A DNA stretch of 64,000 nucleotides from Promethearchaeota archaeon (GCA_019058445.1 JAHPZA010000006.1:960001-1024000); one strand, 5' to 3'. Positions 27,482 through 48,442 are shown, counted from the first letter of the stretch. Numbers and translations: made by a program. Notes: a model not told the origin generated them from the sequence alone.

Positions 27482-27639
27482 CCTTAACACCTCTTTTTTT
27501 TAATATAAACTATAATCTTTCTAAATTTATATCTTATATAAATGCAAATTTGTTATGCATCCAATTTTAGGTATTTGCAAGTTAAGAAAAAAAAAAGAGA
27601 AATAAAAAATATAAACTTATAGCAACTTATTTCATAGAT

Positions 27640-29463: not shown

Positions 29464-29716
29464 TTTAGATAAACCTTTCTTTTTAATTTATTAATCAAAA
29501 TGGAGTTTTTCTTCTTTTGTCGAAATAAATTTCATTAGAATTATTTTGTTTTTTCGAGTTATAAATCTTCTATTCTTGAATTTAAAGCTAACTCAAATAT
29601 TCGGTGAATGGTGTTTGAAAACGGTATAAACTTTAAAATTTTCAAGAAATCACAAATTTACAAGGAAAAACTAAAGAGATTGAAGGATAAAAATAAAGAT
29701 AAACTATTATTTGGAA

Positions 29717-31546: not shown

Positions 31547-31642
31547 TATAGCCACACCATTCTTTTTTATTCTTAAAATAAAATGTCTGTTAAGATTTCG
31601 TTTTTAAAAAAATTTTATTAGAACTAATATGTTTTTTTGCAA

Positions 31643-31659
31643 TTATAAATCTTACATTC
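31643..31659 (-). promoter_or_regulatory. Shared promoter motif GAATGTAAGATTTATAA (BRE+TATA-like)
   Basis: Identical 17-mer at 38697..38713 and 41623..41639; variants at 39600..39616, 29559..29575 and 48312..48327; all upstream of minus-strand genes. Confidence 0.65.
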
Positions 31660-31769
31660 CAAAATATTTCAAATACTCAGATCTTTGGTGGAAAATAGTT
31701 AGAAGTGGTAATATTCTTAGAAAAAACTAAAATTAATAAAATAAAAATTGATATTTTTTGGTAGAATAA

Positions 31770-32564: not shown

Positions 32565-32636
32565 TTTCAGCTAACCTAATTATATTTTATTCTATGATTT
32601 ATGTGGTTACTATAAAAATTAAAAAATGTTACTAAC

Positions 32637-33470
32637 TTATTCTAAAGGGAAAAACTTTGGTAAGTCGCCCGGTACTTTCGTTTCCCACTTTGGTTTTTTT
32701 TTTTGGATGAAAGACATTACCCCTTCTCTTGCTTCAGGTTGCTTTCCCGTCCATGCATAATATTTATGATCAATTCTTTCAGCCTTATCAATATCAGTTT
32801 CGGAGAGGAATTGATAGAGCATTCGTTTTGTGAGAGATACACATACAGGACCACACAATAAGATTTCTTCGGCTATTTCTTTAGCAGTATCCATTAGCTT
32901 ATCATCCGGTACGACCCGACTGACAAGTCCATATTCTAAAGCTTCCCTAGCATTAAGAATTCTCCCTGTATACATTAATTCGGCTGCTTTACTGATTCCA
33001 ATGAGGCGAGGTAAAATCCAAGGACATGCAATTTCAGGTACGATACCACGTCGATTAAAGTTGATTCCTATTCGTGCACTTTCAGAAGCTATTCGAATAT
33101 CGAATGGCAGAATCATGGTCACTCCTACTCCAACAGCAGGTCCGTTTATTGCAACTATCACAGGTTTTTTCAGTAAAAAATACCGCTTGATCAAACTACT
33201 TTCACGTTGAATATTTTCTTCATATTCTTTGGGTCGATTTGATCCATCAAAAGTGGTGGCTCCGCCCGATAAATCTGCACCCGCGCAAAATCCTCTGCCT
33301 GCGCCGGTAACTATCAATACTCTAAGATTCGGATCATTTTCTACTTTCATAATTGCATCCCAGAACTCTATTGCCATCTGATAAGTATATGCATTAAGTT
33401 TTTCCGGTCTGTTTAGAGTGATAGTTGCTATTTGATTTGAGCTCTCAAAAATAATTTGTTCGTATTCCAT
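32637..33470 (-). CDS. Enoyl-CoA hydratase/isomerase (crotonase) family protein
   Basis: LNRPEKLNA, FCAGADL, AINGPAVGVG, RGIVPE. Confidence 0.92.
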   Translation of the reverse strand: MEYEQIIFESSNQIATITLNRPEKLNAYTYQMAIEFWDAIMKVENDPNLRVLIVTGAGRGFCAGADLSGGATTFDGSNRPKEYEENIQRESSLIKRYFLLKKPVIVAINGPAVGVGVTMILPFDIRIASESARIGINFNRRGIVPEIACPWILPRLIGISKAAELMYTGRILNAREALEYGLVSRVVPDDKLMDTAKEIAEEILLCGPVCVSLTKRMLYQFLSETDIDKAERIDHKYYAWTGKQPEAREGVMSFIQKKKPKWETKVPGDLPKFFPLE

Positions 33471-33748
33471 TTCTAATATTAACCTCCTATTTTTGAAAAT
33501 TTAATTACTTTAAATTGAATTTATTAGAGATATTTATTCTATTTTGTATAAATATTTTGTTTTGTATTGGAAAAGAGTTTGAACTTAAAACAGCTGGATT
33601 TTATATATAAATGTACAATTTAGAAATTCTTTTAAATGAACCTTCTTTAACTAAAAATTGCCAAGGAATTGTTCATTGAACATTGAACGATTCATGAGAT
33701 CTCTATAAAAAACATATATTTAATAAACCTATCAAAAGGTAATATTAG

Positions 33749-34801
33749 ATGGTAATTGAAACCAAAATTACTGAAATGTTAGGGATTAAACATCCCATCA
33801 TTGCTGCGCCAATGGGTCCTTTTTATACAACCGATTTAACTATTGCAGTTTCAGAAGCCGGTGGTCTTGGGGTATTAAGTCATACCGCGTTATATACCGA
33901 CTATGAAGCGGGAAGGACTCCAATTGAAATAATGAAAAAAAACATGGAATATGTTGTTGAGCATACAGATAAACCTTTCGGGTTTAACATTCGAACTTCA
34001 AGGGTGCAAACAGATGCTCCAGCGCTAGTGAAAGAAATTCCAGAATTCATCATGAATAATCCAAAACTAAAAGAACAATGTGTGTATGCCATTACCAGCG
34101 CAGGATCCTCAAAAACGCTACCGGAATCAAAATCTTTCCAGAAATTAAAAGAGAGTGGCTCGAATATAAAACATTTTCATGTAGCACCAGCTCTTTGGTT
34201 GGCAGATAAATGCATGGCAACAGGAGTGGACGGTATGGTTATAACCGGTAATGAAGGAGGAGGACATCAATCCTATGAAAAAGTTAGCACTCTAGTTTTA
34301 TTACAGCAAGTTGTCCAAAAATATCCAGATATGCCATTAGTAGCATGCGGAGGATTTGCTACAGGTCAAGGTCTTGCAGCCGCCTTATCCATCGGTGCTG
34401 GAGCGATTGCGATGGGCTCGAGATTCATTGCATCAAAAGAAAGTGAATTCAATGAAGCTTATAAGAATGTTGTACCTCCCGCGAAAGCACAAGATACCAT
34501 TATGGTAACTGGGTCTTTAGGTCCAATTAGGCTCTGGAAAAATAAATACTCACTCTCGCGTGGATTGATTGCGGATAAATCAGAGAAAATGGCAGAAGAG
34601 TCCAAAATGACGATGCAAGATACCATAAACGAATTAAAAAAAGGGGAAATGGCTTATAAAGGAAATATCACTGATGGTGCTGTACTTTTAGGTCAGAGTA
34701 TTGGAACTATCAATAGTGTAGAAAAAGTTAGCAAAATCATCGAAAATATAGTTAAGGATGCTGAAAATTATATAAAAAATGCTTCTGCTCAAATTAAATA
34801 A
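33749..34801 (+). CDS. Nitronate monooxygenase / FabK-like FMN-dependent oxidoreductase
   Basis: PIIAAPM, VSEAGGLG, GNEGGGH, VACGG, MGSRF, GQSIG. Confidence 0.88.
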   Translation: MVIETKITEMLGIKHPIIAAPMGPFYTTDLTIAVSEAGGLGVLSHTALYTDYEAGRTPIEIMKKNMEYVVEHTDKPFGFNIRTSRVQTDAPALVKEIPEFIMNNPKLKEQCVYAITSAGSSKTLPESKSFQKLKESGSNIKHFHVAPALWLADKCMATGVDGMVITGNEGGGHQSYEKVSTLVLLQQVVQKYPDMPLVACGGFATGQGLAAALSIGAGAIAMGSRFIASKESEFNEAYKNVVPPAKAQDTIMVTGSLGPIRLWKNKYSLSRGLIADKSEKMAEESKMTMQDTINELKKGEMAYKGNITDGAVLLGQSIGTINSVEKVSKIIENIVKDAENYIKNASAQIK

Positions 34802-34866
34802 ATCTTCACATTGAAAAATACAAATGATTAAAGGTATCAAAGAAAAGGTAAGAGAAAAAGCTTACT

Positions 34867-36696
34867 CTAAAATTTATATTTCTTTTTTTTTATATTTTCA
34901 TAGATATCTTTTGTTAAAGGGCGGTATTCTGATTCATTGGGCAACATAACATACAAGGGATCGTTTATATTATGAAAGTCAAAGCCCTCCTTTTTCAAAG
35001 TTATTTTCTTAAGTTTAAATGTGGGAGTGATTGCCAGGTTTGCTTTGAAACGTAAAAAAATTGGTATAGCATATGGTGCCAGATCTTTCCTAAATTTATC
35101 AGCTAGTGCATTAAAATTGAATTTTTCCATAGAACAGCTTGGCATAATGGCGGCCATACCTGCACGACCCTCAGTACCAGGTATCTGAACTCCATAGGCC
35201 GATGATATTAAGACTTGATCAAACACATTGAGCACTTCTTCTACCTCTGTCGTAGATACGTTATGCCCTTTCCAGCGAAAGGTATCTCCGAGCCGGTCCA
35301 CAAATTGGGCATGATCACAGCCGAGATCTCTGAGTAAATCGCCTGTATTAAACCAAATATCCCCTTCTTTAAAGACATTATAGAGTAATTTTGCCTCAGT
35401 AGCCTTTTTGTCTGTATATCCGCGGAATTCAGTCATACCCTTACACTCAAAAATGCATAAACCGGTCTCACCAAGCCCAACCCTCTGCATATAACCGTCT
35501 TCTTCTCTAATTGGCTTTTCTGCTTCAGGATCGAATTTAACAATAGCATAAGGAGCGACGCAAGTACCAATAGTACAATCAAAATTAAATAAATTCGCGA
35601 AACCTGCCACATTTTCACTAGCTCCGTATGCTTCGGCAACAATTTCGATGCCAAATCGTTCCTTAAAATCTTTCCATATTTCGGGACGAAGACCGTTCCC
35701 GATAATCGCTCTTATGGAATTTTTTTTGTTATCAGGCATTATAGGTTGATTCATTAAATAACGACAAAATTCTCCGACATATGTAAAGATCGTAGCGTTG
35801 TATTTGCGAATTTCATCCCAGAAACGGCTAGCACTAAATTTTCGGCTTATTGCTAAAGCAGCTCCACTAGCAAATGCAGGGGCCCACCCTAACCACACAG
35901 CAGTTGCATGGTAAAAAGGGAGAGCAACATATACAGTATCATCGGTGGTCGCCTCCGTTATCAAAAGTCCGACGGCATGGCCATTAAAAACTAAAGAGTG
36001 GTGGATTACTGTGGCTGCTTTATATAAACCAGTAGTTCCAGAAGTAAAGAAATACACTATTGGGTCATTAGTTTTAACATTACAAGTAGTAGTAGGATTG
36101 CGGGGCGGATAATCCTTAATTATAAGACTGAGATCGATAAAGCCATCTGGAAGAGGCTTAGAATCTCGATCGGGTGAAAATAATAATATTTGATCGTTCG
36201 ATAAATTGAGCTCGGATTTAACCTTTGTAAATTCATCAATTAACTCCGAGCCAACTATAATGAGTTTTCCTGGAGTAAGGTTCAAGCAATATGCAAGGGT
36301 TTTTTCGCGCAGTTCAGTGTTAATTAATGAGTTTATTGCTCCGATTTTCCCGATCGCGGTAAATGCTATCAATAATTCCGGTCGATTTGTCATAAAGATC
36401 TCAACAATATCACCCTTTTTCAAACCTAAAGAGATAAAATAGTGAGCATAGCGATTAACCTGTTCATTAAATTCTTTATAAGTCAATAAAATATCTTCAA
36501 ATTTGATGGCTATTTTATCAGAATACTCCCGCGCATTCCTCTCAACAATGGTCCCCCATGAGATTTTGTTTTCAATTCCTAGCTTCATAAGGTATTGAAA
36601 GAGGTGACTGTGTTTTCGAAAAAATTCTTTCCTTCTTTTTCTATACTCTTTCTTATCAATAAGATCCTTTCCTTTCAGTTCTGAGTTTTCTGACAA
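34867..36696 (-). CDS. Long-chain acyl-CoA synthetase, FATP type, paralog 4
   Basis: FTSGTTGLYK (Pro to Tyr), GNGLRP, YGASE, DRLGDTFRWKG. Confidence 0.92.
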   Translation of the reverse strand: MSENSELKGKDLIDKKEYRKRRKEFFRKHSHLFQYLMKLGIENKISWGTIVERNAREYSDKIAIKFEDILLTYKEFNEQVNRYAHYFISLGLKKGDIVEIFMTNRPELLIAFTAIGKIGAINSLINTELREKTLAYCLNLTPGKLIIVGSELIDEFTKVKSELNLSNDQILLFSPDRDSKPLPDGFIDLSLIIKDYPPRNPTTTCNVKTNDPIVYFFTSGTTGLYKAATVIHHSLVFNGHAVGLLITEATTDDTVYVALPFYHATAVWLGWAPAFASGAALAISRKFSASRFWDEIRKYNATIFTYVGEFCRYLMNQPIMPDNKKNSIRAIIGNGLRPEIWKDFKERFGIEIVAEAYGASENVAGFANLFNFDCTIGTCVAPYAIVKFDPEAEKPIREEDGYMQRVGLGETGLCIFECKGMTEFRGYTDKKATEAKLLYNVFKEGDIWFNTGDLLRDLGCDHAQFVDRLGDTFRWKGHNVSTTEVEEVLNVFDQVLISSAYGVQIPGTEGRAGMAAIMPSCSMEKFNFNALADKFRKDLAPYAIPIFLRFKANLAITPTFKLKKITLKKEGFDFHNINDPLYVMLPNESEYRPLTKDIYENIKKKKYKF

Positions 36697-36778
36697 ATAA
36701 TGCTCCTTACTCTTAATTTATAATACCAAATACAAAGTTTTAAATTCGTCTTAAATAAAAAAAAGTTTTGCTAACAAA

Positions 36779-38599
36779 TTAGAATTTATATTGTCCTTTT
36801 TGAATATTCTCATAGATATCCTTTGTTAATGACTTATATTCTGATTCAAGTGGTGTCAATACGTATATGTGATCCTCGATTTTTTCTATGTCAAAGCCTT
36901 CCTTTTTCAATTGACCTTTTTTAAGTTTAAATGTTGATGTGGTGGATAATTGGGATTTCATTCTGAGAAAAATAGGGACTCCATAAGGAGGGAGGTTTTG
37001 TATTAGTTGTTCTGTGAGTCCCTTTAAGTCAAAATCCCCAACAGAGGAGCTGGGTACAATGGCAGCCATTCCAGCTCGGCCATCAGTACCTGGTATTTGG
37101 ACACCATATACAGTAGATAACATAACCTGCTCAAAACTATTCAGGATTTTTTCTACTTCCGTAGTAGAGATATTATGTCCCTTCCAACGGAATGTATCTC
37201 CAAGGCGATCGACAAATTGGGCATGATCATTTCCAATATCTCTCATTAAATCTCCGGTGTTGAACCACATATCTCCCTTTTCAAAGACATCATGAAAGAC
37301 TTTCGCTTCAGTTGCCTCTTTATCTGTATAACCCCTAAATTCAACATTACCAACAATCTGAAATAATAATAATCCTGATTCGCCAAGACTGACCCTTTCC
37401 ATAAATCCTTCATTGTTCTTGATTGGTGCTTCTACGTCGTGATCATATTTAACTATTGCATAAGAACTTAAACAGCACCCTACAGTACGGTCGAAATTCA
37501 GTAGGTTGGCAAATGATCCTACTGCTTCGGTTGCTGAGTAGTATTCGCCAACTTTTTGGATATTGAACCTTTCTTTAAATTTTGTCCAAATTTCTGGACG
37601 AAGTCCTAAACCAATGACTATTCTCACGGGATTATCAGCATCATCGGGTTTGGGAGGTTGATTCATTAAATATCGGCATATCTCTCCGACATAATTAAAA
37701 GCAGTAGCATTAGATTTGCGAATATCATCCCAAAAATGGTTAATGCTGAATTTTCGTGCAATTGCTAAAGCAGCACCGCCCGCAAATGCAGATGAACAAC
37801 CTACTGCTAATGTATTTGAATGAAATAGCGGAAGTGAAACATACATCGTATCTTCAGAGGTAAATTCCCCAATTGATTCTCCAAATCCATAATAGGCACC
37901 CACTAAAGTGGCATGAGCAAACTTAGTAGCTTTAGGAAATCCGGTTGTGCCAGAAGTAAAGATGTAAGTAATGATGTCTGACGGTTTAACGTCCTTCGTG
38001 GTTAAAGGATTTTCTGTGGGAAATTTCTTGACTTCTTGGGAAAGATCAATAAAATTCTCTGGAATTGATATCAATCCTTGGTCTGGCACAAAATAAAGGA
38101 TTTGATCTTCTGACAAGTCCAATTCAGATTGAACGGCACTAAAACTTTCATAACAATTTTCATCAACAATAATAAGCTTGCCAGGAGTAAGGTTTAAACA
38201 ATGTGCCAATGATTGTTCGCGTAGATCAATATTGATTAAGGATGTAATTGCTCCAATTTTCCCTAGAGCATATACTATCATTAAATATTCTGGACGATTG
38301 GTCATCATTAATTCTACTACATCCCCTTTTTTCATGCCTAAAGAGATGAAATAATGCGCATACCGATTTACCCATTCATTAAATTCTTTATAAGTATATG
38401 TTATATCTTCAAATTTAATAAGAATATTATCAACATATTCTTGCGCATTCCTTTCTATAATAGTTCCCCATGAAATCTTATTCTCCTCTCTAATTTTCAG
38501 TATTTCTGCTAAAGTATTCGCATGTTTTCTAATAAACCTCATACGCCTTTTTCTATACTCTTTATTTGGAATAAGGTCCAAGTCTTTATCTTCTATCAT
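36779..38599 (-). CDS. Long-chain acyl-CoA synthetase, FATP type, paralog 5
   Basis: FTSGTTGFPK, DRLGDTFRWKG; start moved to MIEDK at 38599. Confidence 0.93.
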   Translation of the reverse strand: MIEDKDLDLIPNKEYRKRRMRFIRKHANTLAEILKIREENKISWGTIIERNAQEYVDNILIKFEDITYTYKEFNEWVNRYAHYFISLGMKKGDVVELMMTNRPEYLMIVYALGKIGAITSLINIDLREQSLAHCLNLTPGKLIIVDENCYESFSAVQSELDLSEDQILYFVPDQGLISIPENFIDLSQEVKKFPTENPLTTKDVKPSDIITYIFTSGTTGFPKATKFAHATLVGAYYGFGESIGEFTSEDTMYVSLPLFHSNTLAVGCSSAFAGGAALAIARKFSINHFWDDIRKSNATAFNYVGEICRYLMNQPPKPDDADNPVRIVIGLGLRPEIWTKFKERFNIQKVGEYYSATEAVGSFANLLNFDRTVGCCLSSYAIVKYDHDVEAPIKNNEGFMERVSLGESGLLLFQIVGNVEFRGYTDKEATEAKVFHDVFEKGDMWFNTGDLMRDIGNDHAQFVDRLGDTFRWKGHNISTTEVEKILNSFEQVMLSTVYGVQIPGTDGRAGMAAIVPSSSVGDFDLKGLTEQLIQNLPPYGVPIFLRMKSQLSTTSTFKLKKGQLKKEGFDIEKIEDHIYVLTPLESEYKSLTKDIYENIQKGQYKF

Positions 38600-38822
38600 A
38601 GTTATTACTCCATTAGTTTTGATATTCAAATTTAAATATGTGCTTAGATCCGATTTATTCAAAAAAAATGGTTAGATTTACTATCTCTTTTTCTAATTAT
38701 AAATCTTACATTCGATGAAATATCCAGAATTAAAGTTTTTGAAACAATCTTTTTGGAAATAGGGAATAATTTGAAAACTTCAAAAAAACTATAAAAGTGG
38801 TTTTTATACAACTTTTATAAAT

Positions 38823-39542
38823 TCATTTCATCTTGGGAATTTGATTACTTTCTAAAAAGGATTTAAGACCCTCTTCTAATTGAACTCCAAAAGAATTAAT
38901 AGCCATAGCTAACATATTATAATTTCCAACAGTAAAGACCAGGTCCATGATCTGGTGCATATTATAGCGTTCAGCCAACGCATTCCATGTTTTATCAGTA
39001 ATAAAAGTGTCTATATAGAGCTCGTCCACCGCTCGGAGTAATGTGGCATCAAAAAGATCCCACCCCACGGCGTCCGGCCCTTCCATAATTCGGTTGATTT
39101 CATCATCAGAGAGAAGCCCATTGTGCTTTGCGCCACGGGCATGCCAACTCCATTCATATTTCGAATAGCAGTGCCATGCGATCCGAAGAATGAGAATCTC
39201 TTTATCTCGTAGGGGTAATGTTGATAAAAATCTCGTATGAATATTGAATGTTGTATATCGCAAATAGAAATCCCTATGTCTAGCCAATGTCTTAACAACA
39301 TTGATTGATGTTTTTTCCCCTAAAATGGGGGTCATCATTTTTTCTCTCTCTGAGAGCAGTTTTGCTAATTTAGCTACATCTGATTTATTAATCGTTGATA
39401 TTGCTGATATTGCTATTTTTCGCTCTTTATCCCTGACTTTAATGAGTTTTTCTCCTTCCAAGGGAGCTATTCTGGGCGTTAAAAGTCGCACACGCTTACC
39501 CAACTCTAATTTTCTTAGATTTTGCTTTTTTTGATTACTCAT
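38823..39542 (-). CDS. Carboxymuconolactone decarboxylase / AhpD-like protein, paralog 1
   Basis: PRIAPL, LPLRDKEILILRIAWHCYSKYEWSWH, LLRAVDEL, DLVFTVGNYNM; start MSNQ. Confidence 0.85.
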   Translation of the reverse strand: MSNQKKQNLRKLELGKRVRLLTPRIAPLEGEKLIKVRDKERKIAISAISTINKSDVAKLAKLLSEREKMMTPILGEKTSINVVKTLARHRDFYLRYTTFNIHTRFLSTLPLRDKEILILRIAWHCYSKYEWSWHARGAKHNGLLSDDEINRIMEGPDAVGWDLFDATLLRAVDELYIDTFITDKTWNALAERYNMHQIMDLVFTVGNYNMLAMAINSFGVQLEEGLKSFLESNQIPKMK

Positions 39543-39690
39543 TACATATTTCAACTTTTAATTTATCCTTTATTATTTTTTAATTATTGATCACGCAATT
39601 TATAAATCTTACATCCATTTAGATATGAATTGAGAATTCAAGTAAATAAAAATTTAAAAAGAATTAAATAAAAACAATCGAAATTATTAA

Positions 39691-41520
39691 TTAAAACTTA
39701 TATTGTCCATTTAGTATATTATCATAGATCTCCTTTGTCAAAGGTACGTATTCTGCCTTACTTGGCAACATAACATACAAGGGGTCATCTATCATCTCAA
39801 GATCAAAGCCCTCTTTTTTTAACTCCACTTTTTTAAATTTAAATGTCGGGGTGATCGAGAGATTCGATTTAAATCTTAGAAAAATTGGCATAGCATAGGG
39901 AGGGAGATTAATTCTAAAATGATTAGTCAATCCACTAAAATCAAAATGCTCAATTTTAATACTAATTACCACGGAAGCCATTCCTGCCCGTCCATCAGTA
40001 CCCGGTATTTTCACACCATACACAGATGACATTAAAACTGGTTCAAAAACGTTGAGGACTTCTTCTACCTCGGTCGTGGATACATTTTGCGCTTTCCAAC
40101 GAAAAGTATCTCCGATTCGATCAATAAATTGAACATGATTACACCCTTGATCTCTCATTAAATCACCAGTATTGAACCAAGCATCTCCTTCTTTGAAGAC
40201 ATTTCGCAAAATTTTTTTTTCCGTCGCGTTTTTATCAGTATAGCCAACAAAGACAAATTCATTTTGAAGGCCCCAAAGAAGCAAACCCGTATCACCAGGT
40301 TTAACTTTTTGCATGAATCCGTTCTCATTTCTTATTGGCTGTTCTTCATCGAAATCATATGTGACAACCGCATAAGGATTTGAACAATAACCAACAGTAC
40401 AGTCAAAGTTTAAATAATTGGCAAATACAGTACCTGTTTCTGATGCTCCATATATTTCTCCTATCTTATTGATGCCGAATCGTTTTTTAAAATCCATCCA
40501 TATATCCGGGCGGAGACCATTGCCCAAGATCGTTCTCACAGGATTATTTGCATCATCAGGATTGGAAGGCCGATTAATCAGATAACGGCACAATTCTCCG
40601 ACATAACTAAATGCAGATGCATTATATTTACGAATATCATCCCAGAAGTGAGAAACGCTAAATTTACTTCGTATAGCCGTAGCTGCACCGACTCCAAAAG
40701 CTGCTGCCCAAGCTACGCATAATCCGGTAGTATGATATAAAGGAAGTGCAATATACATAGTATCTTCGGGTGTTAATTCCCCCAATAACAGACCAAATAA
40801 ATAATGACTGCCTACCATACGTAAATGGATTAATATTGAAGCTTTCGGTAAACCTGTCGTACCTGATGTGAATACATAAGCAAGTGGATCGGAACCCTTA
40901 ATATTGGAGGTCATTGAAGGATTTTCAGCAGAAAAATCCTTGACAACTTGGCTAAGATCAAGAAATCCATCTGGAATGGGCATTCCACATTGATCTGGTA
41001 AAAAAAGGAGATTCTGCCCTTTTCGTAAATTAAGATCAGGTTTAACATTATTAAAGGCATTAAAACAGTCTTCATCAACTATAAAAACATTTGAGGGATT
41101 AAGTTTTAAAGAATGTGCCAGAGTTCTCTCACGCTGTTCGGTATTGATTAATGAACTAATTGCCCCAATTTTCCCAAGGGCACTAAGGGTGATTAAAAAT
41201 TCAGGGCGATTCATCATCATAAGCTCTACAACATCACCTTTTTTTAAGCCTAATGAAATAAAATAATTCGCATAGCGATTTACCCATTCATTAAATTCTT
41301 TAAAAGTTAACATATTATCTTCAAATTTGATGGCGACATCTTCGGCATATTTTTCTGCATTTCTTTCTACAACTTTTCCCCAGGAAACCTTGTTTTCGGC
41401 AACTATTTTGACGATCTCGGCAACTTCATGGGCATGTTTTTTATTAAATTCCCTCAATTTTTTTCTAAATACTTTCTTATCAATAAGATCCGGTTCTTTC
41501 TGGTTTGGTTCTTCTAACAT
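39691..41520 (-). CDS. Long-chain acyl-CoA synthetase, FATP type, paralog 6
   Basis: FTSGTTGLPK, GNGLRP, YGASE, DRIGDTFRWKAQNVST. Confidence 0.93.
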   Translation of the reverse strand: MLEEPNQKEPDLIDKKVFRKKLREFNKKHAHEVAEIVKIVAENKVSWGKVVERNAEKYAEDVAIKFEDNMLTFKEFNEWVNRYANYFISLGLKKGDVVELMMMNRPEFLITLSALGKIGAISSLINTEQRERTLAHSLKLNPSNVFIVDEDCFNAFNNVKPDLNLRKGQNLLFLPDQCGMPIPDGFLDLSQVVKDFSAENPSMTSNIKGSDPLAYVFTSGTTGLPKASILIHLRMVGSHYLFGLLLGELTPEDTMYIALPLYHTTGLCVAWAAAFGVGAATAIRSKFSVSHFWDDIRKYNASAFSYVGELCRYLINRPSNPDDANNPVRTILGNGLRPDIWMDFKKRFGINKIGEIYGASETGTVFANYLNFDCTVGYCSNPYAVVTYDFDEEQPIRNENGFMQKVKPGDTGLLLWGLQNEFVFVGYTDKNATEKKILRNVFKEGDAWFNTGDLMRDQGCNHVQFIDRIGDTFRWKAQNVSTTEVEEVLNVFEPVLMSSVYGVKIPGTDGRAGMASVVISIKIEHFDFSGLTNHFRINLPPYAMPIFLRFKSNLSITPTFKFKKVELKKEGFDLEMIDDPLYVMLPSKAEYVPLTKEIYDNILNGQYKF

Positions 41521-41620
41521 ATTAAATCCCCTTCTATTTTTTAGTTATTTAAAACAAAATAAATCATTCGATTTCTTAGAATAAAAGAAAATTTTGTTAG
41601 AAAATAAGTAAGAAAATTCC

Positions 41621-41748
41621 ATTTATAAATCTTACATTCATGTTAAAATTCGAATCCAAAATTTTTCAAGAAATTATCTTAAAATGGAGTAAATTTGTTC
41701 TAAATAAAATAATGAGAATAAACAAAGTTATAATCTGATTATTTTGTT
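41621..41748 (-). repeat. Degenerate adk-tail/terminator copy plus downstream spacer and promoter (most distal copy)
   Basis: 41711..41748 matches 45441..45478 at 32/38; 41621..41737 aligns ungapped to 46389..46505 at about 91/117. Confidence 0.75.
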
Positions 41749-41765
41749 ATGTCATTTTTTATTTT

Positions 41766-42377
41766 TCATTCTTGCCCTTGAATAATGAATATGAGCAACC
41801 TCGTTAAAAATTCAATTAATTCATCTTCCGTTTCAAATATAGGCATGATAAACAGATGTCGATGTATTATTGCTTCAAGAAAGGAAAAGAGAAGCATTGA
41901 TTTCTTTAGTATTTTTTCTTGAGGAATATTTTTAAAAAAGTCTAATTTGTGTAATTTAATAACTGAACCTTCCATCATTTCCCTAACTATCTTCTCTTGA
42001 TTGCTAAAAAGTTCTTTATTTGACATCCTAGCTTGATCAAAAGCTTTATATAGTTCAAGATTTTCTCTGTGAGAATTTAAATGGTTTTTTACAATTATTT
42101 TGAATAGCTTAATGGGATTATCTTCCTCAATTTCAGCTAACTGATTGAGATCTAAGATTTTATCGATTGTAAAGTTATAGAATACACTTGCTATTGAGGG
42201 CATTCCTTTAGGAAAATAACGATATATTGTTCCAACACTTATTTGAGCTTTTTTAGCTATATGTCTCGTGCTTACATTGCTATATCCGTATTTATTAATA
42301 AGATCAATGAAAGTTTGGAAAATTCGTTTAATTTTCTCCTCCTTATTTCTAAGAGGTTTCTTCTTTTTTTCTAACAT
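41766..42377 (-). CDS. TetR/AcrR family transcription regulator
   Basis: GYSNVSTRHIAKKAQISVGTIYRYFP HTH. Confidence 0.92.
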   Translation of the reverse strand: MLEKKKKPLRNKEEKIKRIFQTFIDLINKYGYSNVSTRHIAKKAQISVGTIYRYFPKGMPSIASVFYNFTIDKILDLNQLAEIEEDNPIKLFKIIVKNHLNSHRENLELYKAFDQARMSNKELFSNQEKIVREMMEGSVIKLHKLDFFKNIPQEKILKKSMLLFSFLEAIIHRHLFIMPIFETEDELIEFLTRLLIFIIQGQE

Positions 42378-42389
42378 CAATTATATATA

Positions 42390-42430
42390 ATGAACAAAGT
42401 TCATAAACTTTTTATATGAACAAAGTTCAT
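42390..42430. promoter_or_regulatory. Two identical perfect palindromes ATGAAC-AAA-GTTCAT (probable TetR operators)
   Basis: Copies at 42390..42404 and 42416..42430 between the divergent TetR and membrane genes. Confidence 0.8.
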
Positions 42431-42457
42431 TAACTGTTATAGTCTAAAAATGAAAAA

Positions 42458-42913
42458 GTGTTGAAAAAGAAAAGTATGATTCTCCAACCTCCTATAAAAG
42501 AAAACCCATTGGGACTTCTAGCTGTGTTTTCTTTCATGTTATTCCTTGTAAGCATTACTACAGGATTCATATTATGGTTAATGACTAAGAAAAAGTTTGC
42601 AAAATGGTATACAGATCATAATATTAAAAAAAAAACCATCCTAAAGCTACATTGTTATGCATCTTATATTGCAGTAATTCTCGGTATCTTACATGGAATT
42701 GTAGAATATCAAGAATGCGAAACTTTATGGAGTATTAAATGGATTGCGGTTTATATAATGGGTGTCCTATGTTTTACTGGGGCGTTATTTCCTAAATTAA
42801 GTGAAATTTTACCTAATATAAGCAGGAAAAGAAAGATGACCGTATTGAGAATAATTCATTTTAGTTTACAAATTATAGTATTGGTTATTATAATTGACTT
42901 TTTATGGTTATAA
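42458..42913 (+). CDS. Four-TM membrane protein with His residues in the TMs (cytochrome b / ferric-reductase-like)
   Basis: LKLHCYAS..ILHG and RIIHF in hydrophobic helices; heme binding is an inference. Confidence 0.55.
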   Translation: MLKKKSMILQPPIKENPLGLLAVFSFMLFLVSITTGFILWLMTKKKFAKWYTDHNIKKKTILKLHCYASYIAVILGILHGIVEYQECETLWSIKWIAVYIMGVLCFTGALFPKLSEILPNISRKRKMTVLRIIHFSLQIIVLVIIIDFLWL

Positions 42914-42945
42914 TGAGATATAAAATGGTTATAATGGGATATAAA
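42904..42945. repeat. 21-bp tandem direct repeat (2 copies, 1 mismatch)
   Basis: atggttataatgagatataaa / atggttataatgggatataaa. Confidence 0.85.
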
Positions 42946-42948
42946 ATC

Positions 42949-42990
42949 AAAAAAAGAGAAAAAAGAAGGTTATAATCCGATTATTTTTTT
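42949..42990 (-). repeat. adk-tail/terminator copy
   Basis: 42 nt identical to 45437..45478; reads K-I-I-G-L-stop plus a T-rich tract on the minus strand. Confidence 0.9.
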
Positions 42991-42996
42991 AAAGTG

Positions 42997-43635
42997 CTAG
43001 TTTGTTTTAAGCAATAACCATTGCCTCTTAAAAAAGAGAGCCAAAACTAATATTGATCCCGAAGCCGTAATCATCCATGGTGAAGCTATAAGGAGTAAAG
43101 CAATGGAGAAAGTAGGGTAGAAATACACCAGAGAAATTATGGGGGTCATTAATGCATGAGCTAAAAAAAATCTTCTAACCCACCTTTCCATTCCCTGCTT
43201 GGCAAACACAGGAATTGCAAATAAACTCGCTAAACCCATGAATATATACCCCAATGCGTCAACATCCCAGAAAAGTGAATGTGGTGTTTGATCTAGAACT
43301 TTAATCTCATCATAATTACCACTTAGAATCATAGGGATAACAGTTGCCATTTGAACAACATAGTTCAGAATAACATAAGTTGCATATATAGCGGAAAAAA
43401 GAACAGCTGCATGAGCCCAAATCATCTTATCTTCGGGTGCTGAATGATAAAGCGCAAGCATAGCAAGTATAAAAGGTACAGGAATTCCAAGTGAAAATCC
43501 ATAAATTAGAATCGCATCTAAAGGAAATTTAATAGAACCTAGAAGTTGCAGAATCTGTGCTATATCAAACCCCACACTTGCTATAAAAGCCATAAGTGCC
43601 GACCAATAACCAATCTTATAAATATTTTCATCCAT
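42997..43635 (-). CDS. Hypothetical multi-pass membrane protein
   Basis: About 6 TMs; YVILNYVVQ, SLFWDVDALGYIFMG; function unknown. Confidence 0.7.
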   Translation of the reverse strand: MDENIYKIGYWSALMAFIASVGFDIAQILQLLGSIKFPLDAILIYGFSLGIPVPFILAMLALYHSAPEDKMIWAHAAVLFSAIYATYVILNYVVQMATVIPMILSGNYDEIKVLDQTPHSLFWDVDALGYIFMGLASLFAIPVFAKQGMERWVRRFFLAHALMTPIISLVYFYPTFSIALLLIASPWMITASGSILVLALFFKRQWLLLKTN

Positions 43636-43876
43636 ATTTTATTTATTTTAGCTTGGTTTTTTTTATTGTATTTCATCCAATTTTTTTAAAAAATTCTTGG
43701 ACAAAATTTAATAGAGACATATTATATTTAAACCTTTTGTTTTTTATCTAATAAATAGCATTTCTTGTTGGATATTATCTAGTAAAAAAGATCTTTCATT
43801 AGAATATATATAGATAATCAGAGATTTATTAAATATTATACAAAAAATTTAAATCTTTAAAAAGTATTATTTAATT

Positions 43877-44326
43877 ATGGACGATTTAGATCATCAAATT
43901 CTTGAGAAATTACAGGAAAACGATAAATTATCATACAAAAAAATTGGTAAAGCTTTAAAAAAACCAGCAAGCACCATCCATTTTAGAGTTAAAAAGATGA
44001 TTGATGAAAAAATAATTATTAAATTTAGTGCAATCGTAGATATGGAAAAATTAGGTTATAATACAGTAGGATGGCTTGGATTGACAATAGATCCTTTGAT
44101 GAGAGATGAAATTATTAAAAAACTTGCCTCGTATAAATTAATAAAAATGATTTCTTCTACTACAGGAGATTATAATTTAATTCTACATATACTTGCTGAA
44201 AATGAGAAAAAATTATGGAGTTTTATTAGAGACAATATCCAAATAATCGAAGGGGTTCATGATGTTCATGTAAGTTCCTCTTTAAAAATATATAAATGGG
44301 AAACTGCTTATTTTTTAAAATTATAA
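43877..44326 (+). CDS. Lrp/AsnC family transcription regulator
   Basis: DDLDHQILEKLQEN..STIHFRVKKM HTH; TGDYNL RAM domain. Confidence 0.92.
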   Translation: MDDLDHQILEKLQENDKLSYKKIGKALKKPASTIHFRVKKMIDEKIIIKFSAIVDMEKLGYNTVGWLGLTIDPLMRDEIIKKLASYKLIKMISSTTGDYNLILHILAENEKKLWSFIRDNIQIIEGVHDVHVSSSLKIYKWETAYFLKL

Positions 44327-44332
44327 AAATTT

Positions 44333-45151
44333 CTAAAATAATTCATCAAGGCTGAATCCACTTTCTAATAATTTTCCAAGTCGGGAAATAAACCTCGTTG
44401 CAGGAGCACCATCAACAATATCGTGATTTAATAAAACAGTCATAGTCAAGTATTCCCGAATTTCAATCCGATCATTAATGACTCCTGGTTTTTTGTTAAT
44501 TCCTCCTATCCCAAACGCTAATGGATGAGCCGTAGTCGGAATAGGCCATCCAAATAGATTACCGAACATTCCAACAGCAGTCACAACGATAGTTCCCATA
44601 AGCTGTTTGACTTTAATGGGGTTTTTAAGTGTATGTTTTAATAGAAATCTTCTAATAAATTTTGGCAAAGATACATAAAGATTCATCTTTTTATCAAGAT
44701 TACCACTACCTAATACAGCAGCACGATTTACTTTTTCAGATTGAGCAGCTCTTATTTCATCATGAATCTCCTTAATACTTTTTCCATTTGTTTTTCTAAT
44801 CAAAAGAGGTAAGGGTACTTTAATTCCATTAACATCTCTTTCAACTATCGTTGAAATATCAACATCTTCAAATCTAATTATTCTTTTACTTCCCTTCATT
44901 ATAGAATGGACCTCTTTATGTTCACTTGCAGCTTGTCCTATACATTTCAAAAGCCATGCTGTAAAAGATATTTTAACACCAGTATCTTTTTCATATTTCC
45001 GAATAAATTCTCGACCTCTCGTAACATCAACTTCAATTAATCCTTTTACATAATGAACTTTATCTCCCTGTGCAAGAAAATCAAGAGTAGGAATTCTTGC
45101 TTTTGGAAACTTTATAACTTCATAAGATCCAACATTTAGTTCTTTTTTCAC
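44333..45151 (-). CDS. Stand-alone 2-oxoacid dehydrogenase E2-type acyltransferase catalytic domain
   Basis: ISFTAWLLK, GTIVVTAVGM, NHDIVDGAPATRF; no lipoyl or E3-binding domain. Confidence 0.85.
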   Translation of the reverse strand: MKKELNVGSYEVIKFPKARIPTLDFLAQGDKVHYVKGLIEVDVTRGREFIRKYEKDTGVKISFTAWLLKCIGQAASEHKEVHSIMKGSKRIIRFEDVDISTIVERDVNGIKVPLPLLIRKTNGKSIKEIHDEIRAAQSEKVNRAAVLGSGNLDKKMNLYVSLPKFIRRFLLKHTLKNPIKVKQLMGTIVVTAVGMFGNLFGWPIPTTAHPLAFGIGGINKKPGVINDRIEIREYLTMTVLLNHDIVDGAPATRFISRLGKLLESGFSLDELF

Positions 45152-45436
45152 TCTGTATTAACATCTCTTCTTTTTTAAGGAAAATATAATAATAGATTTC
45201 TAGAGCTTTAATTATTCTCTATAAAAGGAATAATACAATTTAGATCTATTTAAATTGGAAATAGTTAAAAAAAATTTAAATACATTATTAATAAATCTTA
45301 ATTTTATATTTGTAAAAGTTGGATTAAGGAATCTGGTTCCCTTTAACTCCATTATTTATTTGCAAATTCAGAGTATTCTCAAAGGTGTGTAAAGAAAAAA
45401 AAAATTTCGGTGCATTAATCATTTCTAAATATCTTA

Positions 45437-45532
45437 AAAAAAAGAGAAAAAAGAAGGTTATAATCCGATTATTTTTTTGATGTCGTCTTCGGTTAAGGCA
45501 AGCGTGTTTTCCGCATCGACCTTTTTCAGCAA
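45437..45532 (-). pseudogene. adk: Displaced adk 3' fragment (24 codons + stop) with T-rich terminator
   Basis: 45458..45532 encodes LLKKVDAENTLALTEDDIKKIIGL*; 67/75 nt identical to adk 47585..47659. Confidence 0.92.
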
Positions 45533-45550
45533 TTTTTTCTTTTTAGAAAT

Positions 45551-46282
45551 TCATATCATCTTGGGAATTTTAAGCTTTTGTGTCAGTGTTTTAAGACCTT
45601 CTTCTTGCTGAACGCCAAAGGAATTAAGTGCCATAGCATACATATTGTAGAATCCCACAGTGAAGACCAGATCTATAAGCTGGTCTGTATTATACCGCTC
45701 AGCTAGAGAATTCCAAGTCTCATCTGTAATAAAGGTGTCTAAATAGAGTTCGTCCACCGCACGGAGCAATGTGGCATTAAAAGTATCCCACTCCTCGGCG
45801 TCTGGTCCTTCCATAATACGGTTGATTTCATTATCGGAGAGGTGCCCACCCGCCTTTGCACTAAGAGTATGATGCCCCCATTCATATTTCGAATAGCACA
45901 GCCATCCGATGCGAAGAATAAGAAGCTCTCTATCCCGGTCGGGGAGTGACGAAGAAAGTAAATGATGTTTGAGCGTCGCAAGTCGTACATATAAATCTCT
46001 ATTATTTGCCATTGTCGAATCATGATTGAAGATTGGAAAATACTTCGGAGCTTCGTCTATACTTCCTCCTAAAAACGGAATTAGTGGTTTATACGCTTCA
46101 ATGCCCCTTTGAACTGCTTTGTCAAATTCTGATTTATCCATCGCTGATTTTAGAACTTCCGTCGCCTTTACTCTTATTTTAATATATTCATCTTTTTCCA
46201 TGAGAGGGATTCTGGGCTTGGAAAGCCGTACATGTTTACGTGGCTCTATTTTTCTTATCACTTCTCCTTCTTGATTACTCAT
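45551..46282 (-). CDS. Carboxymuconolactone decarboxylase / AhpD-like protein, paralog 2
   Basis: LPDRDRELLILRIGWLCYSKYEWGHH, LLRAVDEL, DLVFTVGFYNM; RBS ggtga before MSNQ. Confidence 0.85.
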   Translation of the reverse strand: MSNQEGEVIRKIEPRKHVRLSKPRIPLMEKDEYIKIRVKATEVLKSAMDKSEFDKAVQRGIEAYKPLIPFLGGSIDEAPKYFPIFNHDSTMANNRDLYVRLATLKHHLLSSSLPDRDRELLILRIGWLCYSKYEWGHHTLSAKAGGHLSDNEINRIMEGPDAEEWDTFNATLLRAVDELYLDTFITDETWNSLAERYNTDQLIDLVFTVGFYNMYAMALNSFGVQQEEGLKTLTQKLKIPKMI

Positions 46283-46388
46283 TACATATTTCACCCTTTA
46301 ATTTTGCTTTTTTATTATTTTAATTGTTGATTTTTCTAATTTATACAATATTGTGAAAAAATTTCGTTATACGAAATAGGTTTATTTT

Positions 46389-46505
46389 ATTAATAAAATT
46401 TACATTTCTGTAAATTTGCTTATTCAAAATTATTCAAAAATTTTTCTTAAAATTGATGAAATTTGCTCGAAATAAAAAAAAGAGAATAAAGAAGGTTATA
46501 ATCCG
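46389..46505 (-). repeat. adk-tail/terminator copy plus downstream spacer
   Basis: 46474..46505 (aaaaaaaagagaataaagaaggttataatccg) matches the 45.4-kb copy with 1 mismatch; the whole segment is homologous to 41621..41737. Confidence 0.8.
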
Positions 46506-46542
46506 TCTAACCTGTTTTTTATGGAATAACTTTAAATCACAA

Positions 46543-47517
46543 TTAAGTTGTTAAATGATTAATCTTATCAATTGCATTTTTTTTAATTTTTTTTATAATG
46601 CAATTTTTTAAAGTAATAGTACCCGCTAATTTTTTAAAAGTTTTGAGGATCTGAATATCCGAATTTTCAATGATAACATCTTTAGATGCTCCGAATTTAA
46701 GAATATTTGTGCTAATACTCTTCATTTTTATATCTGAGCAAAATTTTAAATTGATATATTCCGAAAAACTACAATTTTCGAAGATTATGTGTTGAGAATC
46801 TATTAATTTAACATATTTTAATTTAAAATTTTTAAAAATTAGAAAATGTCTATTCTTAATAATTTTTCGTAGGTCAAACTCTTGGTTATTTTGATCAAAA
46901 TAATCAAAAATTGCCGGATCTGCTTTAGTTCCATTTCCCTTACATATTAATTCTGTTAATAAACCGAGACCTCCTACAGAAAATGTTTTATAATTCTCTA
47001 ATAGTGGTTTTTGGATGATTTTGCTATCGTATTCATACCGCCTATGGACTTGATTATTTTCAAATATATTTCCTCTACTTAAATGAAGTATATCCCAAAA
47101 GATGTTCCAAATTTCACAATTTTTGAAAACATTATTAAAGCATTTGTATAATTGAAACCACTCTTGGGATCTTGAATCTTCAAAAGAACAATTATGGCAA
47201 ACAATGAACAACACTGAATCACACCTAATTTTTTGAATTTTTATATAAGAACAATAACAAAGGTTTAAAATTTCAAATGTGGTATTTTCGATTGTAATAT
47301 TTTTTGAATATAATAAATTGACATACTTAAGGGTACAATCTTTTATTAGAATATATAAATCTGATTCCATAATATCAAAATCAGTAGGCAATCTCAAGAA
47401 CGAGTCAATAACTAAAGGATCTTCTTTTGATCCACTCCCCTTACAATTTATTTCGAATTCTTCAATTTTCGCAAAATTTCTCCATCTACTATAATTTCTT
47501 CTTAAAGTAAGTTTCAT
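46543..47517 (-). CDS. Right-handed beta-helix (NosD/pectin-lyase-like repeat) protein with two modules
   Basis: CKGSGSKEDPLVID and CKGNGTKADPAIFD caps, each followed by NITIENT/IIFENC-type repeats; start MKLTL at 47517. Confidence 0.65.
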   Translation of the reverse strand: MKLTLRRNYSRWRNFAKIEEFEINCKGSGSKEDPLVIDSFLRLPTDFDIMESDLYILIKDCTLKYVNLLYSKNITIENTTFEILNLCYCSYIKIQKIRCDSVLFIVCHNCSFEDSRSQEWFQLYKCFNNVFKNCEIWNIFWDILHLSRGNIFENNQVHRRYEYDSKIIQKPLLENYKTFSVGGLGLLTELICKGNGTKADPAIFDYFDQNNQEFDLRKIIKNRHFLIFKNFKLKYVKLIDSQHIIFENCSFSEYINLKFCSDIKMKSISTNILKFGASKDVIIENSDIQILKTFKKLAGTITLKNCIIKKIKKNAIDKINHLTT

Positions 47518-47584
47518 CTTACATCCATAATATATTTCAATATAAACTTCTTTGCTCCAAATAGAAAAAAAAAGAAAAAAAAGG

Positions 47585-48244
47585 TTATATTCCAATTATT
47601 TTTTTGATGTCGTCTTCGGTTAGTGCAAGCGTGTTTTCCGCGTCGACTTTTTTCACTAATCCTTTTTTTTCATAGTATTCGATTACGGGTTTGGCATTTT
47701 TTTCATAGGTGTCTAACCGGTTTTTAAGGGTTTCTTCGGTGTCATCGCTTCTCTGAATAAACTCTATTTCAGCTCCACATTTATCGCACTTCCATTTGTT
47801 CTCCCCTATTTGGACTTTAGGCTGGAGTGTGTATTTGTTGTAAATCTCGCCGCACTCAGGGCAGCCGAACCTTCCGAGGATCCTTTTTGTGATTATATCT
47901 CTGCCAATTTCCAGCAAGAGCAATATATCTACTTCAGATATTGTTGATAATGCTTCACTTTGCGCTAAGGTTCTTGGAAAACCATCTAGCAAAAATCCAT
48001 GCTGCTTAACATCATCCTGATTTAACCTATCCCGCACCATATCAATCACTACATCATCCGGAACGAGTTCGCCTTTATCCATGTACCCTTTAGCTTTTAG
48101 ACCTAAAGGTGTTTGATTCTTTAAATTTTCGCGAAAAATATCGCCAGTGCTTATATGAGCAATGTTTGGTAATACTCGTTTGATTTGCCCCGAAAAGGTC
48201 CCTTTACCCGCGCCAGGGGGGCCAAATAATATTAATTTTTTCAT
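47585..48244 (-). CDS. adk: Adenylate kinase (long type with CxxC..CxxC LID)
   Basis: GPPGAGKGT, HISTGDIFR, GELVPD, LDGFPRT, QRSDD. Confidence 0.97.
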   Translation of the reverse strand: MKKLILFGPPGAGKGTFSGQIKRVLPNIAHISTGDIFRENLKNQTPLGLKAKGYMDKGELVPDDVVIDMVRDRLNQDDVKQHGFLLDGFPRTLAQSEALSTISEVDILLLLEIGRDIITKRILGRFGCPECGEIYNKYTLQPKVQIGENKWKCDKCGAEIEFIQRSDDTEETLKNRLDTYEKNAKPVIEYYEKKGLVKKVDAENTLALTEDDIKKIIGI

Positions 48245-48442
48245 ATCTATCATTCAAATCTAATTTAAGTTATAAAATTAGTATCATTTAATTGTCAAAA
48301 AGATTTAAAATTTATAATCTTACATCCTACTATTCATCAATTTTTTTTTTAGAAAAATAAACCGTAAAATCGGAAAAATAAATTAAAATTTAGTTTGAGA
48401 AATGATTTAATCTATTATTTTTATTGAATAAACTTTCCGAAG

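Follow-up and report, generated by a model that had tools for sequence, protein, structure and literature searches.

Displaced copies of the adk gene end divide a variable gene array behind adenylate kinase in a Promethearchaeota archaeon

The adenylate kinase gene, adk, of a Promethearchaeota archaeon is followed by an array of gene modules in which copies of the end of adk itself recur. We analyzed this locus in a window of 64,000 nt (GCA_019058445.1 JAHPZA010000006.1:960001-1024000) taken from the metagenome-assembled genome (MAG) of the archaeon, hereafter G000, which comprises 4.61 Mb in 10 contigs with a GC content of 31%. A first-pass annotation of the same DNA had described four displaced adk tails, each closing a different gene module, and had proposed that adk serves as a reusable landing pad for homologous integration. 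Repeat searches, together with nhmmer searches using a profile of the adk 3' regions of G000 and its congeners G003 and G008 (130 nt coding plus 90 nt downstream), recovered all four copies in the orientation of adk at or near the positions described, and the profile search found no further copy in the window (Table 1, where tail spans are given relative to the adk stop codon).

Table 1. Features of the adk-aroD region, in window coordinates
Feature	Coordinates	Strand	Description
aroD	22269..23015	-	type I 3-dehydroquinase; Pfam DHquinase_I 7e-42
Distal island, tail-free	23016..41650	-	six AMP-binding (acyl-CoA synthetase-like) paralogs, second CMD gene, NMO, enoyl-CoA hydratase, alpha/beta-hydrolase, carboxylesterase (Pfam)
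BRE/TATA-like motif	41621..41644	-	ATGTAAGATTTATAAAT (minus strand); closes junction unit, precedes acyl-CoA synthetase gene
Displaced tail c41	41651..41755	-	about -20..+90; profile positions 105-209, E 3.1e-7
Module 4	41766..42913	mixed	two genes; GC 29%
TetR regulator, module 4	41766-42380	-	TetR_N 4e-10
DUF4405 membrane protein, module 4	42458-42913	+	Pfam 9e-5, 23.3 bits, under curated cut-off 26.7
Two degenerate stop-codon motif copies	42903..42940	-	GGTTATAAT (plus strand); just past c42; repeat family D5, 74%; overlap DUF4405 stop codon
Displaced tail c42	42944..42995	-	about -20..+30; E 2.3e-8
Module 3	42997..45151	mixed	three genes between perfect 42-nt direct repeats
Membrane protein, module 3	42997-43635	-	212 aa
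Lrp/AsnC regulator, module 3	43877-44326	+	Pfam
E2-like acyltransferase, module 3	44333-45151	-	2-oxoacid_dh catalytic domain (Pfam)
Displaced tail c45	45425..45546	-	-95..+30; profile positions 45-161, E 1.7e-35
Module 2, CMD-like gene	45551..46294	-	carboxymuconolactone decarboxylase (CMD) family; Pfam CMD 7e-5; likely start ATG 46282
Displaced tail c46	46410..46509	-	-9..+90; profile positions 120-218, E 1.7e-9
Module 1	46543..47520	-	protein without Pfam family, 325-350 aa; GC 25%
Resident tail unit	47510..47717	-	last ~130 nt of adk, stop 47585-47587, T-run, spacer start; profile positions 1-207, E 4e-59
adk, anchor gene, intact	47585..48253	-	adenylate kinase, 222 aa (219 aa from second ATG); Pfam ADK 1.4e-48 and ADK_lid

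The resident adk has orthologs 90% identical in G003 and 87% identical in G008, and the match of its own tail unit to the consensus stops about 42 nt past the stop codon, where module 1 starts. The displaced copies differ in make-up. Copy c45 holds about 90 nt of in-frame adk coding sequence with the stop codon and T-run and is 88% identical to adk over 107 nt. Copy c46 consists of 10 nt of coding sequence followed by the T-run, the spacer and an eroded promoter-like motif, and it aligns with the spacer between adk and the CMD gene in G003 and in the public contig L054; by its sequence it is a former adk-CMD intergenic region. The 42 nt that c42 shares with c45 (42949-42990 and 45437-45478) are indeed 100% identical. 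Copy c41, the most diverged, retains the spacer and matches c46 over 79 nt at 83.5%, and repeat family D4 likewise joins c46 to 41616-41748. Three of the extents first given have to be widened, as c45 reaches 45546 and both c46 and c41 run about 90 nt further left through the spacer and the promoter-like motif. Together with the true adk end (47564-47610), the tails form direct-repeat family D3, with five co-oriented copies (the others at 41707-41753, 42949-42995, 45437-45483 and 46475-46521), and the core 20-mer gives four matches at no more than three mismatches, with 0.02 expected by chance. Every displaced tail lies close to a minus-strand stop codon, 34 nt from that of the beta-helix-like gene (46543), 5 nt from the CMD-like gene (45551), 2 nt from the membrane protein gene (42997) and 11 nt from the TetR gene (41766), in keeping with the limit of about 40 nt first reported. 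The degenerate motif copies just past c42 may be stubs of older tails.

In the 4.61-Mb genome the tail repeat is confined to the adk locus, as judged by pattern search, blastn-short with all five copies and self-BLAST. This excludes a genome-wide terminator repeat, an outcome that the first-pass annotation had itself named as refuting; other exact 16-mer matches sit in coding sequence and do not extend. The locus is also the genome's only dispersed short direct-repeat array, defined as three or more copies within 20 kb, the one other cluster being a tandem repeat inside a gene. The tails have no match in Rfam, and ARAGORN found no tRNA or tmRNA gene in the window. The B-recognition-element (BRE)/TATA-like motif that closes the unit recurs before adk (48310), before the gene CMD38 (39600) and at 38697 (families D11, D12, D15 and D17); it is kept at the unit end in 15 or more tails and probably acts as a promoter.

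As first described, the tails split the region into modules. These are spaced 1.0-2.5 kb apart, contain one to three genes each on either strand and range in GC content from 25% to 41%, against 31% for the genome. Pfam bears out the labels CMD, 2-oxoacid_dh, Lrp/AsnC, DUF4405, TetR and ADK, while the label of the module 1 protein, possibly a right-handed beta-helix, comes from a weak feature match (0.84) to PF13229 clusters. Within the genus this protein was found in G000 and G009 only (39% identity), and its best relatives, 43-45% identical, belong to another genus. The CMD gene of module 2 is 71% identical to the gene right after adk in G003 and is found behind adk in G008 and L054 as well. 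The E2-like gene of module 3 was absent from searches of nine other genomes of the genus and has its best relatives, 64-71% identical, in other genera. In the native contexts inspected outside the genus, the relatives of the E2 and beta-helix genes have neither Lrp or membrane neighbours nor tails, and so point to no donor module.

An alignment of 25 tails from G000, G003, G008 and 11 public contigs (one of them, L058, a contig of the congener G007) defines a conserved junction unit of about 200 nt, made up of the last ~70-95 nt of adk, the stop codon, a T-run, a spacer of ~60 nt and the BRE/TATA-like motif. The unit is complete where the next gene follows the direction of adk. Before convergent genes, and before genes that come with an upstream region of their own, homology goes no further than the T-run (about +30). 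Tails differ in their 5' limits, with starts at -9, -20, -45, -70, -75, -80, -95, -120 and at least -186. In contig L047 the displaced adk fragment starts at codon 64; this stretch (L047 918-1085) is a displaced adk pseudogene in which residues 64-85 are fused to residues 190-222, about 104 codons being deleted, and the T-run follows. Junctions between cargo and tail are cargo-specific and kept across genomes, as seen for the CMD-tail junction in G000, G003 and L054 and for the junction of a tail with an old yellow enzyme (OYE) gene in L054 and L050. One tail of G003 directly borders a truncated AMP-binding gene, an imprecise junction that favours homology because exact site-specific exchange would not yield it.

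These junctions bear on the order of events. By sequence comparison, the ancestral state of G000 and G003 was adk, a spacer-promoter, the CMD gene, a full tail and an AMP-binding gene. The E2 and TetR modules later entered inside that one tail, with repeats of 42-50 nt, whereas the end of adk itself received the beta-helix module, the repeat here being ~45 nt long. As the E2 and TetR modules lie inside one former tail, insertion is open to any tail and not to adk only, and the adk 3' end as a reusable landing or exchange site is supported with that amendment. The CMD module and its tail are old, because they are common to G003 and L054, and the earlier notion that the most distal tail is the most degenerate and so the oldest proves too simple.

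When 154 genomes of the order were searched at the DNA level with the unit, multiple copies turned up in four only, all of the same genus (G000, G003, G008 and G007), with no extra core copies elsewhere in G003, G008 or G007, and pattern scans of public genome and metagenome contigs yielded 11 more contigs from several separate assemblies. A 34-nt core match in the distant genome G042 was discarded as a low-complexity chance match adjoining unrelated ORFs. Behind adk these relatives carry different cargo sets separated by adk tails, as the landing-pad proposal had predicted, and the maps of G003, G008 and the contigs exclude fixed synteny. The order in G003 is adk, CMD, tail, DUF1326, tail and the truncated AMP-binding gene. 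G008 has adk, CMD and AMP-binding genes, tail, DUF362 and aroD, the tail of its CMD module being bounded differently from that of G000, G003 and L054. L054 carries adk, a fused CMD-CMD gene, a tail, an OYE flavin reductase gene in antisense and a further tail; its fused gene (1632-3065) is one 477-aa open frame directly behind adk that corresponds to two CMD-family genes, separate in G000. L049 has adk, an alpha/beta-hydrolase (abh) gene with an AMP-binding gene, and a tail, and L058 runs from a tail through isochorismatase and a second tail to a hydrolase (abh) gene. Displaced tails stand next to other genes in L053, L047 and L050.

Unoccupied states were also found. G003 is an empty site for the beta-helix module, with adk, spacer and CMD in sequence and a single repeat copy. 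L056 and L051 have the order adk, spacer-promoter and AMP-binding gene, and thus a single unit where the CMD module sits in G000. In G006, G022 and G005, aroD follows adk within about 25-35 nt (tblastn), and G009 and G011 show the same by eye from the sequence. Relatives outside the island clade thus keep the adk-aroD adjacency, and the comparison supports the adk 3' side as a lineage-specific hotspot, one confined to a small set of Asgard archaea of the Lokiarchaeia type. The upstream flank of adk is variable too, because L051 has there (2-367) a carboxylesterase gene 82% identical to the G000 gene beside aroD. Immediately upstream of adk, contig L052 (972-2315) encodes a 447-aa protein with a transposase-type helix-turn-helix (HTH_28 7.7e-7; weak HTH_Tnp_ISL3 and MarR) and no recognised catalytic domain.

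The end of adk itself is mosaic. Between pairs of island-type adk genes, third-position identity is 0.71-0.96 over the last 24 codons and 0.42-0.80 over the body (0.42-0.69 without the pair L056-L052), and the tails of island-type and island-free genomes agree at 0.29-0.62 of third positions. In 6-codon bins, distant island-type genes score 0.42-0.60 upstream of codon -24 and 0.78, 1.00, 0.63 and 0.97 in the last four bins, so that the homogenised tract, about 72 nt from approximately codon -24, is far longer than the minimal core. The phylogenies agree with this picture: in the tree of adk bodies L055 is sister to G005 (ultrafast bootstrap (UFBoot) 98) and L048 to G022 (94), both of the latter with the adk-aroD arrangement, whereas in the tail tree all island-type tails cluster apart from G005 and G022. 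Informative sites switch accordingly, from 90:46 in the body to 2:19 in the tail for L055 (p = 9e-7, nominal) and from 82:31 to 0:11 for L048 (p = 2.5e-6, nominal). Evidently, to judge from these alignments, the adk end was overwritten by a common sequence in otherwise distant lineages. Within genomes, c45 has the G000-specific variant 'gcttgc' (Ala), like the resident adk end, while L053 and L054 encode this Ala by other codons, and the tail of G003 carries G003's own variant. Such sharing of tail variants within a genome is the pattern that would be expected from gene conversion.

In G000, adk is not the only gene with an insertion and a long tail duplication. A second case lies elsewhere in the genome (C9:408980-410114, also L107 2481-3615), where a 743-nt insert stands between two copies, 98% identical, of the final 196 nt of a 716-aa gene. 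The insert holds an 85-aa membrane-protein ORF, part of it matches another G003 contig at 74%, and G003 and G008 have the empty site, with the segment present once and the insert absent. Self-BLAST gave several further two-copy direct repeats with one copy overlapping or abutting a gene 3' end. Six such candidates (C6:650747/653710, C3:175751/177906, C6:953397/954789, C4:98788/101220, C10:613450/621016 and C1:197358/203791) have repeats of 79-286 nt at 85-92% identity with the second copy 1.4-7.6 kb downstream; the first of them was set aside as an insertion, having no clean empty site in relatives. Near the C9 insertion, a segment of about 100 nt (L107 3812-3914) matches several contigs per relative at 88-92% and is a multi-copy conserved element.

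The first-pass annotation had seen no integrase, transposase or attC-like structure, and our searches agree. Pfam searches of ORFs called in or beside about 13 inspected arrays or contigs found no integrase, transposase or other mobility gene, and the array ORFs match enzymes, regulators and membrane proteins only. The tyrosine recombinase family PF00589 has no match in the window and two in the genome, both far away (C9:114213 and C6:26666); the IntI-specific domain was not searched. The first of these, XerA-like, was found in eight of nine other genomes of the genus, with or without an array. The second is present in G000 and G003, in contrast to most of the genus, and was not found in G008 (81% complete) or G007 (72%). 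Neither tyrosine recombinase co-occurs cleanly with the array as a cognate integrase should, a comparison in which serine recombinases and divergent integrases were not searched genome-wide. Pattern scans of IMG/VR gave no viral contig with the core. Single-strand DNA folds of several tails on both strands were no more stable than shuffles in any attC-like manner (z -1.0 to +0.7), and inspection of the tail consensus revealed no 11-6-11 dif layout but only a 6-1-6 palindrome, the genome's own dif site not having been identified. No meaningful inverted repeats flank the modules and no transposase domain rose above threshold, leaving no insertion sequence or transposon features.

The inserted region is larger than first described. 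The array is real, and the full region spans adk to aroD, a gap of 24.5 kb in G000 (23016-47584) in which the tails are confined to the proximal 6 kb; the nhmmer profile search found no tail in the distal 18 kb. This distal island, whose genes beyond the AMP-binding paralogs likewise point to lipid or ester metabolism, is partly common with G003, at protein identities of 87-95%. Its six full-length AMP-binding paralogs (window 25652-41520) lie on one strand and are 66-75% identical in DNA, with alignments that reach into the upstream promoter-like motif. A region upstream of aroD (AAATTTTTTA-ATTGCTAAAAATAGTTATTTTTAA) is conserved among island-bearing genomes (window 23016-23098, L040 6700-6789, L056 3780-3846), and this conservation suggests that aroD acquired its own promoter once parted from adk. 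Beyond aroD, a second stretch of about 21.8 kb (window 467-22268) separates it from the next gene that is syntenic in relatives; it is full of paralogs of ~470-510 aa, several pairs of which are 68-72% identical in DNA, and has no aroD-tail repeats. No aroD-tail array or other repeated gene tail was found in the window.

We favour, at an even chance, an explanation in which the array grows and changes by homology-dependent insertion and exchange between junction units behind adk. The recombining element would be the portable unit of ~200 nt, with cargo blocks of 1-2.5 kb (metabolic enzymes, regulators and membrane proteins) between unit copies, and because of this position each block would gain a promoter in front and a terminator behind. 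A circle or fragment carrying part of the unit would enter by a Campbell-type crossover, which would duplicate the common stretch and so leave a displaced tail; a crossover between two tails would loop a block out; and gene conversion would keep the tails alike and overwrite the resident adk end. No integrase encoded by the element would be required. The crossover chemistry, the circular intermediate, the route from cell to cell and the promoter and terminator roles are the parts of this model that we infer. Homology is favoured by the varying left limits, the long adk coding stretches in tails, the ~72-nt tract, the within-genome variants, the G003 junction and the C9 event.

Several observations weigh against homology-dependent exchange. 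The interval -9..+30 is common to every one of the 25 aligned tails, and a right limit of about +30 recurs in at least six (c45 and c42 in G000, c2 in L054, c2 in G008, and those of L047 and L053), which random crossovers do not predict. The repeats are only 42 nt (perfect) around the E2 module and ~45 nt around the beta-helix module, a size like that of an att core and short for RadA-type recombination. The core includes a 6-1-6 palindrome (ATAATC G GATTAT), and the left limit of c46 falls at its centre. The p-values for the mosaic genes are nominal because the tract boundary was picked after seeing the data. At the far end of the island no tail remnant lies beside aroD in G000, G008 or L056, even at E values up to 1000, and the first separation of adk from aroD is for this reason not explained by the tail mechanism. 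The homologous crossover first proposed is favoured by the 5' limits and the homogenised end, while the constant interval, the recurrent right limit and the 42-nt repeat fit a core site.

Such a site is what serial site-specific integration (tandem accretion) would provide, an alternative that we consider unlikely, if by no means negligible. Small elements would carry an attP with a core of ~40 nt spanning the adk stop codon and T-run, a tyrosine or other recombinase would act in trans or from elements since decayed, the modules would be integrase-less remnants like cis-mobilizable elements (CIMEs) or the leftovers of tycheposons, and the tails would be att sites. The shared interval with its short palindrome, the right limit recurring in independent insertions, the perfect flanking repeats of the E2 module with the ~45 nt of the beta-helix module, and the position of the c46 limit all suit this account. 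Precedents of this kind are known (10.1101/2020.12.28.424599; CIMEs, PMC7563491). The horizontal spread of the tail type is also expected if incoming elements bring the gene end, and the tyrosine recombinase at C6:26666, present in G000 and G003 and not in most of the genus, would be a candidate enzyme, although the two other array-bearing genomes, G008 and G007 (81% and 72% complete), yielded no such gene. No integrase or integrase fragment lies in or beside the ~13 arrays or contigs, and the core occurs in no viral contig of the IMG/VR scans and in no extra copy elsewhere in G000, G003, G008 or G007. The 45-186 nt or more of adk coding sequence in displaced tails is neither needed nor made by exchange at a core att site, and homogenisation of adk starts ~72 nt before the stop codon, well upstream of the core. 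Similar long-duplication insertions at unrelated genes speak against a recombinase specific to adk.

It is improbable that no horizontal capture took place and that the array came from local tandem duplications including the adk 3' end, after which a large ancestral cluster, lost variously in relatives, diverged and was reshaped by deletion and shuffling. Such a history could account for the island paralogs (six AMP-binding and two CMD genes), the vertical inheritance of the CMD-tail junction in G000, G003 and L054 and the distal island common with G003, but it is opposed by cargo between tails that shows no relation across modules or across genomes, by the E2-like gene (64-71% identical relatives in other genera, none found in nine other genomes of the genus) and the similarly isolated beta-helix-like gene, by the departure of module GC (25%-41%) from 31%, by the conflict between adk tail and body phylogenies and by the empty sites in relatives. 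Contigs assembled from short reads in the Logan resource confirm adjacencies in the probable source run, though not module order: one joins SDR, adk, beta-helix and CMD genes and ends inside c45, the exact 243-aa CMD product thus lying beside adk and the beta-helix gene, and another of 2506 nt is the E2-Lrp-membrane module between c42 and c45. A chimeric joining of strains at a short repeat is accordingly very improbable, even though the genome is a MAG, the Logan contigs break at the 42-nt repeat (as expected of an exact repeat of that length in a short-read graph) and no more than 21-44% of sampled words occur in the study's other samples, against 100% in the source run, because the same architecture appears in G003, G008, G007 and contigs of several separate public assemblies, which makes misassembly unlikely as a general cause, and the 42-nt repeat is shorter than a sequencing read.

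Among known systems, the closest in appearance are the CIMEs and microCIMEs beside ICESt1/ICESt3 at fda and tRNA-Lys in streptococci, which are integrase-less derivatives arising by tandem accretion (PMC7563491; Bellanger et al. 2011, as cited there). Both arrays keep a target at the 3' end of a protein gene intact, hold modules without recombination genes between direct repeats and vary among strains in order and content; at adk, direct repeats of the 3' end flank the modules and adk is full length. In the streptococci, however, an integrase of an integrative and conjugative or integrative and mobilizable element with defined att sites is usually present in the same array or strain, whereas none was found in any adk array, and the adk repeats are 40 to >200 nt long, carry a terminator-promoter junction and belong to an Asgard host. 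The genomic islands of Prochlorococcus built by tycheposons (bioRxiv 10.1101/2020.12.28.424599) likewise grow by successive insertions at one site that push older ones inward, with scattered partial target copies, adaptive metabolic cargo and many remnants without mobility genes. They differ in targeting tRNA or tmRNA genes, carrying tyrosine recombinases and leaving fragmented integrases, none of which is seen at adk.

Integrons, including archaeal integrons and clusters of attC sites lacking an integron integrase (CALINs), are reported to be enriched in Asgard MAGs (PMC9668308) and resemble the adk array in function, as small cassettes gather at one site, each closed by a recombination repeat and served by the expression signals of the platform. 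In contrast, the adk array has no nearby IntI or attC-like fold, its repeats are copies of a host gene end, its genes are of mixed orientation, and modules of two to three genes with their own regulators are possible. Modules that exploit Xer recombination (IMEX, pdif) likewise have no recombinase of their own, lie between repeated sites and would depend on a host enzyme for their movement; dif sites have 11-bp inverted arms around a 6-bp spacer, and an archaeal XerA/dif system is described (PMC2958812), while the tail core has only its 6-1-6 palindrome and no 11-6-11 layout by inspection. The adk array thus has neither the IntI and attC that define integrons, nor the tRNA target and recombinase of tycheposons, nor the dif layout of Xer modules. 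From restriction-modification genes of Helicobacter, Haemophilus and others, Furuta, Abe & Kobayashi (2010, PMC2853133) described insertion with long target duplication, which shares with the adk array repeats >30 bp of variable length (46-420 bp), no mobility gene, a frequent position at a gene 3' end, empty sites and a mechanism that is unknown. What defines that class was found at adk, a repeat of >30 bp that is single in relatives and an insert free of mobility genes. Those events are single, scattered and bacterial, and the survey retained no archaeal case, whereas the adk events are stacked, several species have their unit in common and the cargo consists of genes other than restriction-modification genes. 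A limited literature search, which is no proof of absence, found no report of adk as an insertion site or of such arrays in Asgard archaea.

A broader proposition, which we offer tentatively and with the balance somewhat against it, is that Asgard archaea have a general, integrase-free mode of gene capture, in which foreign blocks would enter at housekeeping-gene 3' ends and duplicate the tail of the gene. Where a site is favoured, as at adk, the tail would have become a portable terminator-spacer-promoter junction that is swapped between species, integron-like in function and run by host recombination or a host enzyme. The second long-duplication insertion, on C9, fits such a general mode.

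To our knowledge, the gain of accessory genes in Asgard archaea is poorly understood, and specific gains have seldom been traced to plasmids, integrases or transposons. At the sequence-defined adk locus, metabolic and regulatory genes can be tracked from species to species as they are gained and exchanged, and the mosaic adk end is a signature of DNA crossing species boundaries there. If a hidden recombinase is responsible, the 42-nt core would be a ready substrate for finding the enzyme. A general process driven by homology would account for flexible islands without mobile-element genes, provide a natural landing pad for genetic tools in Lokiarchaeia and make insertion with long target duplication, so far a curiosity of bacteria, a recurrent mechanism in archaea.

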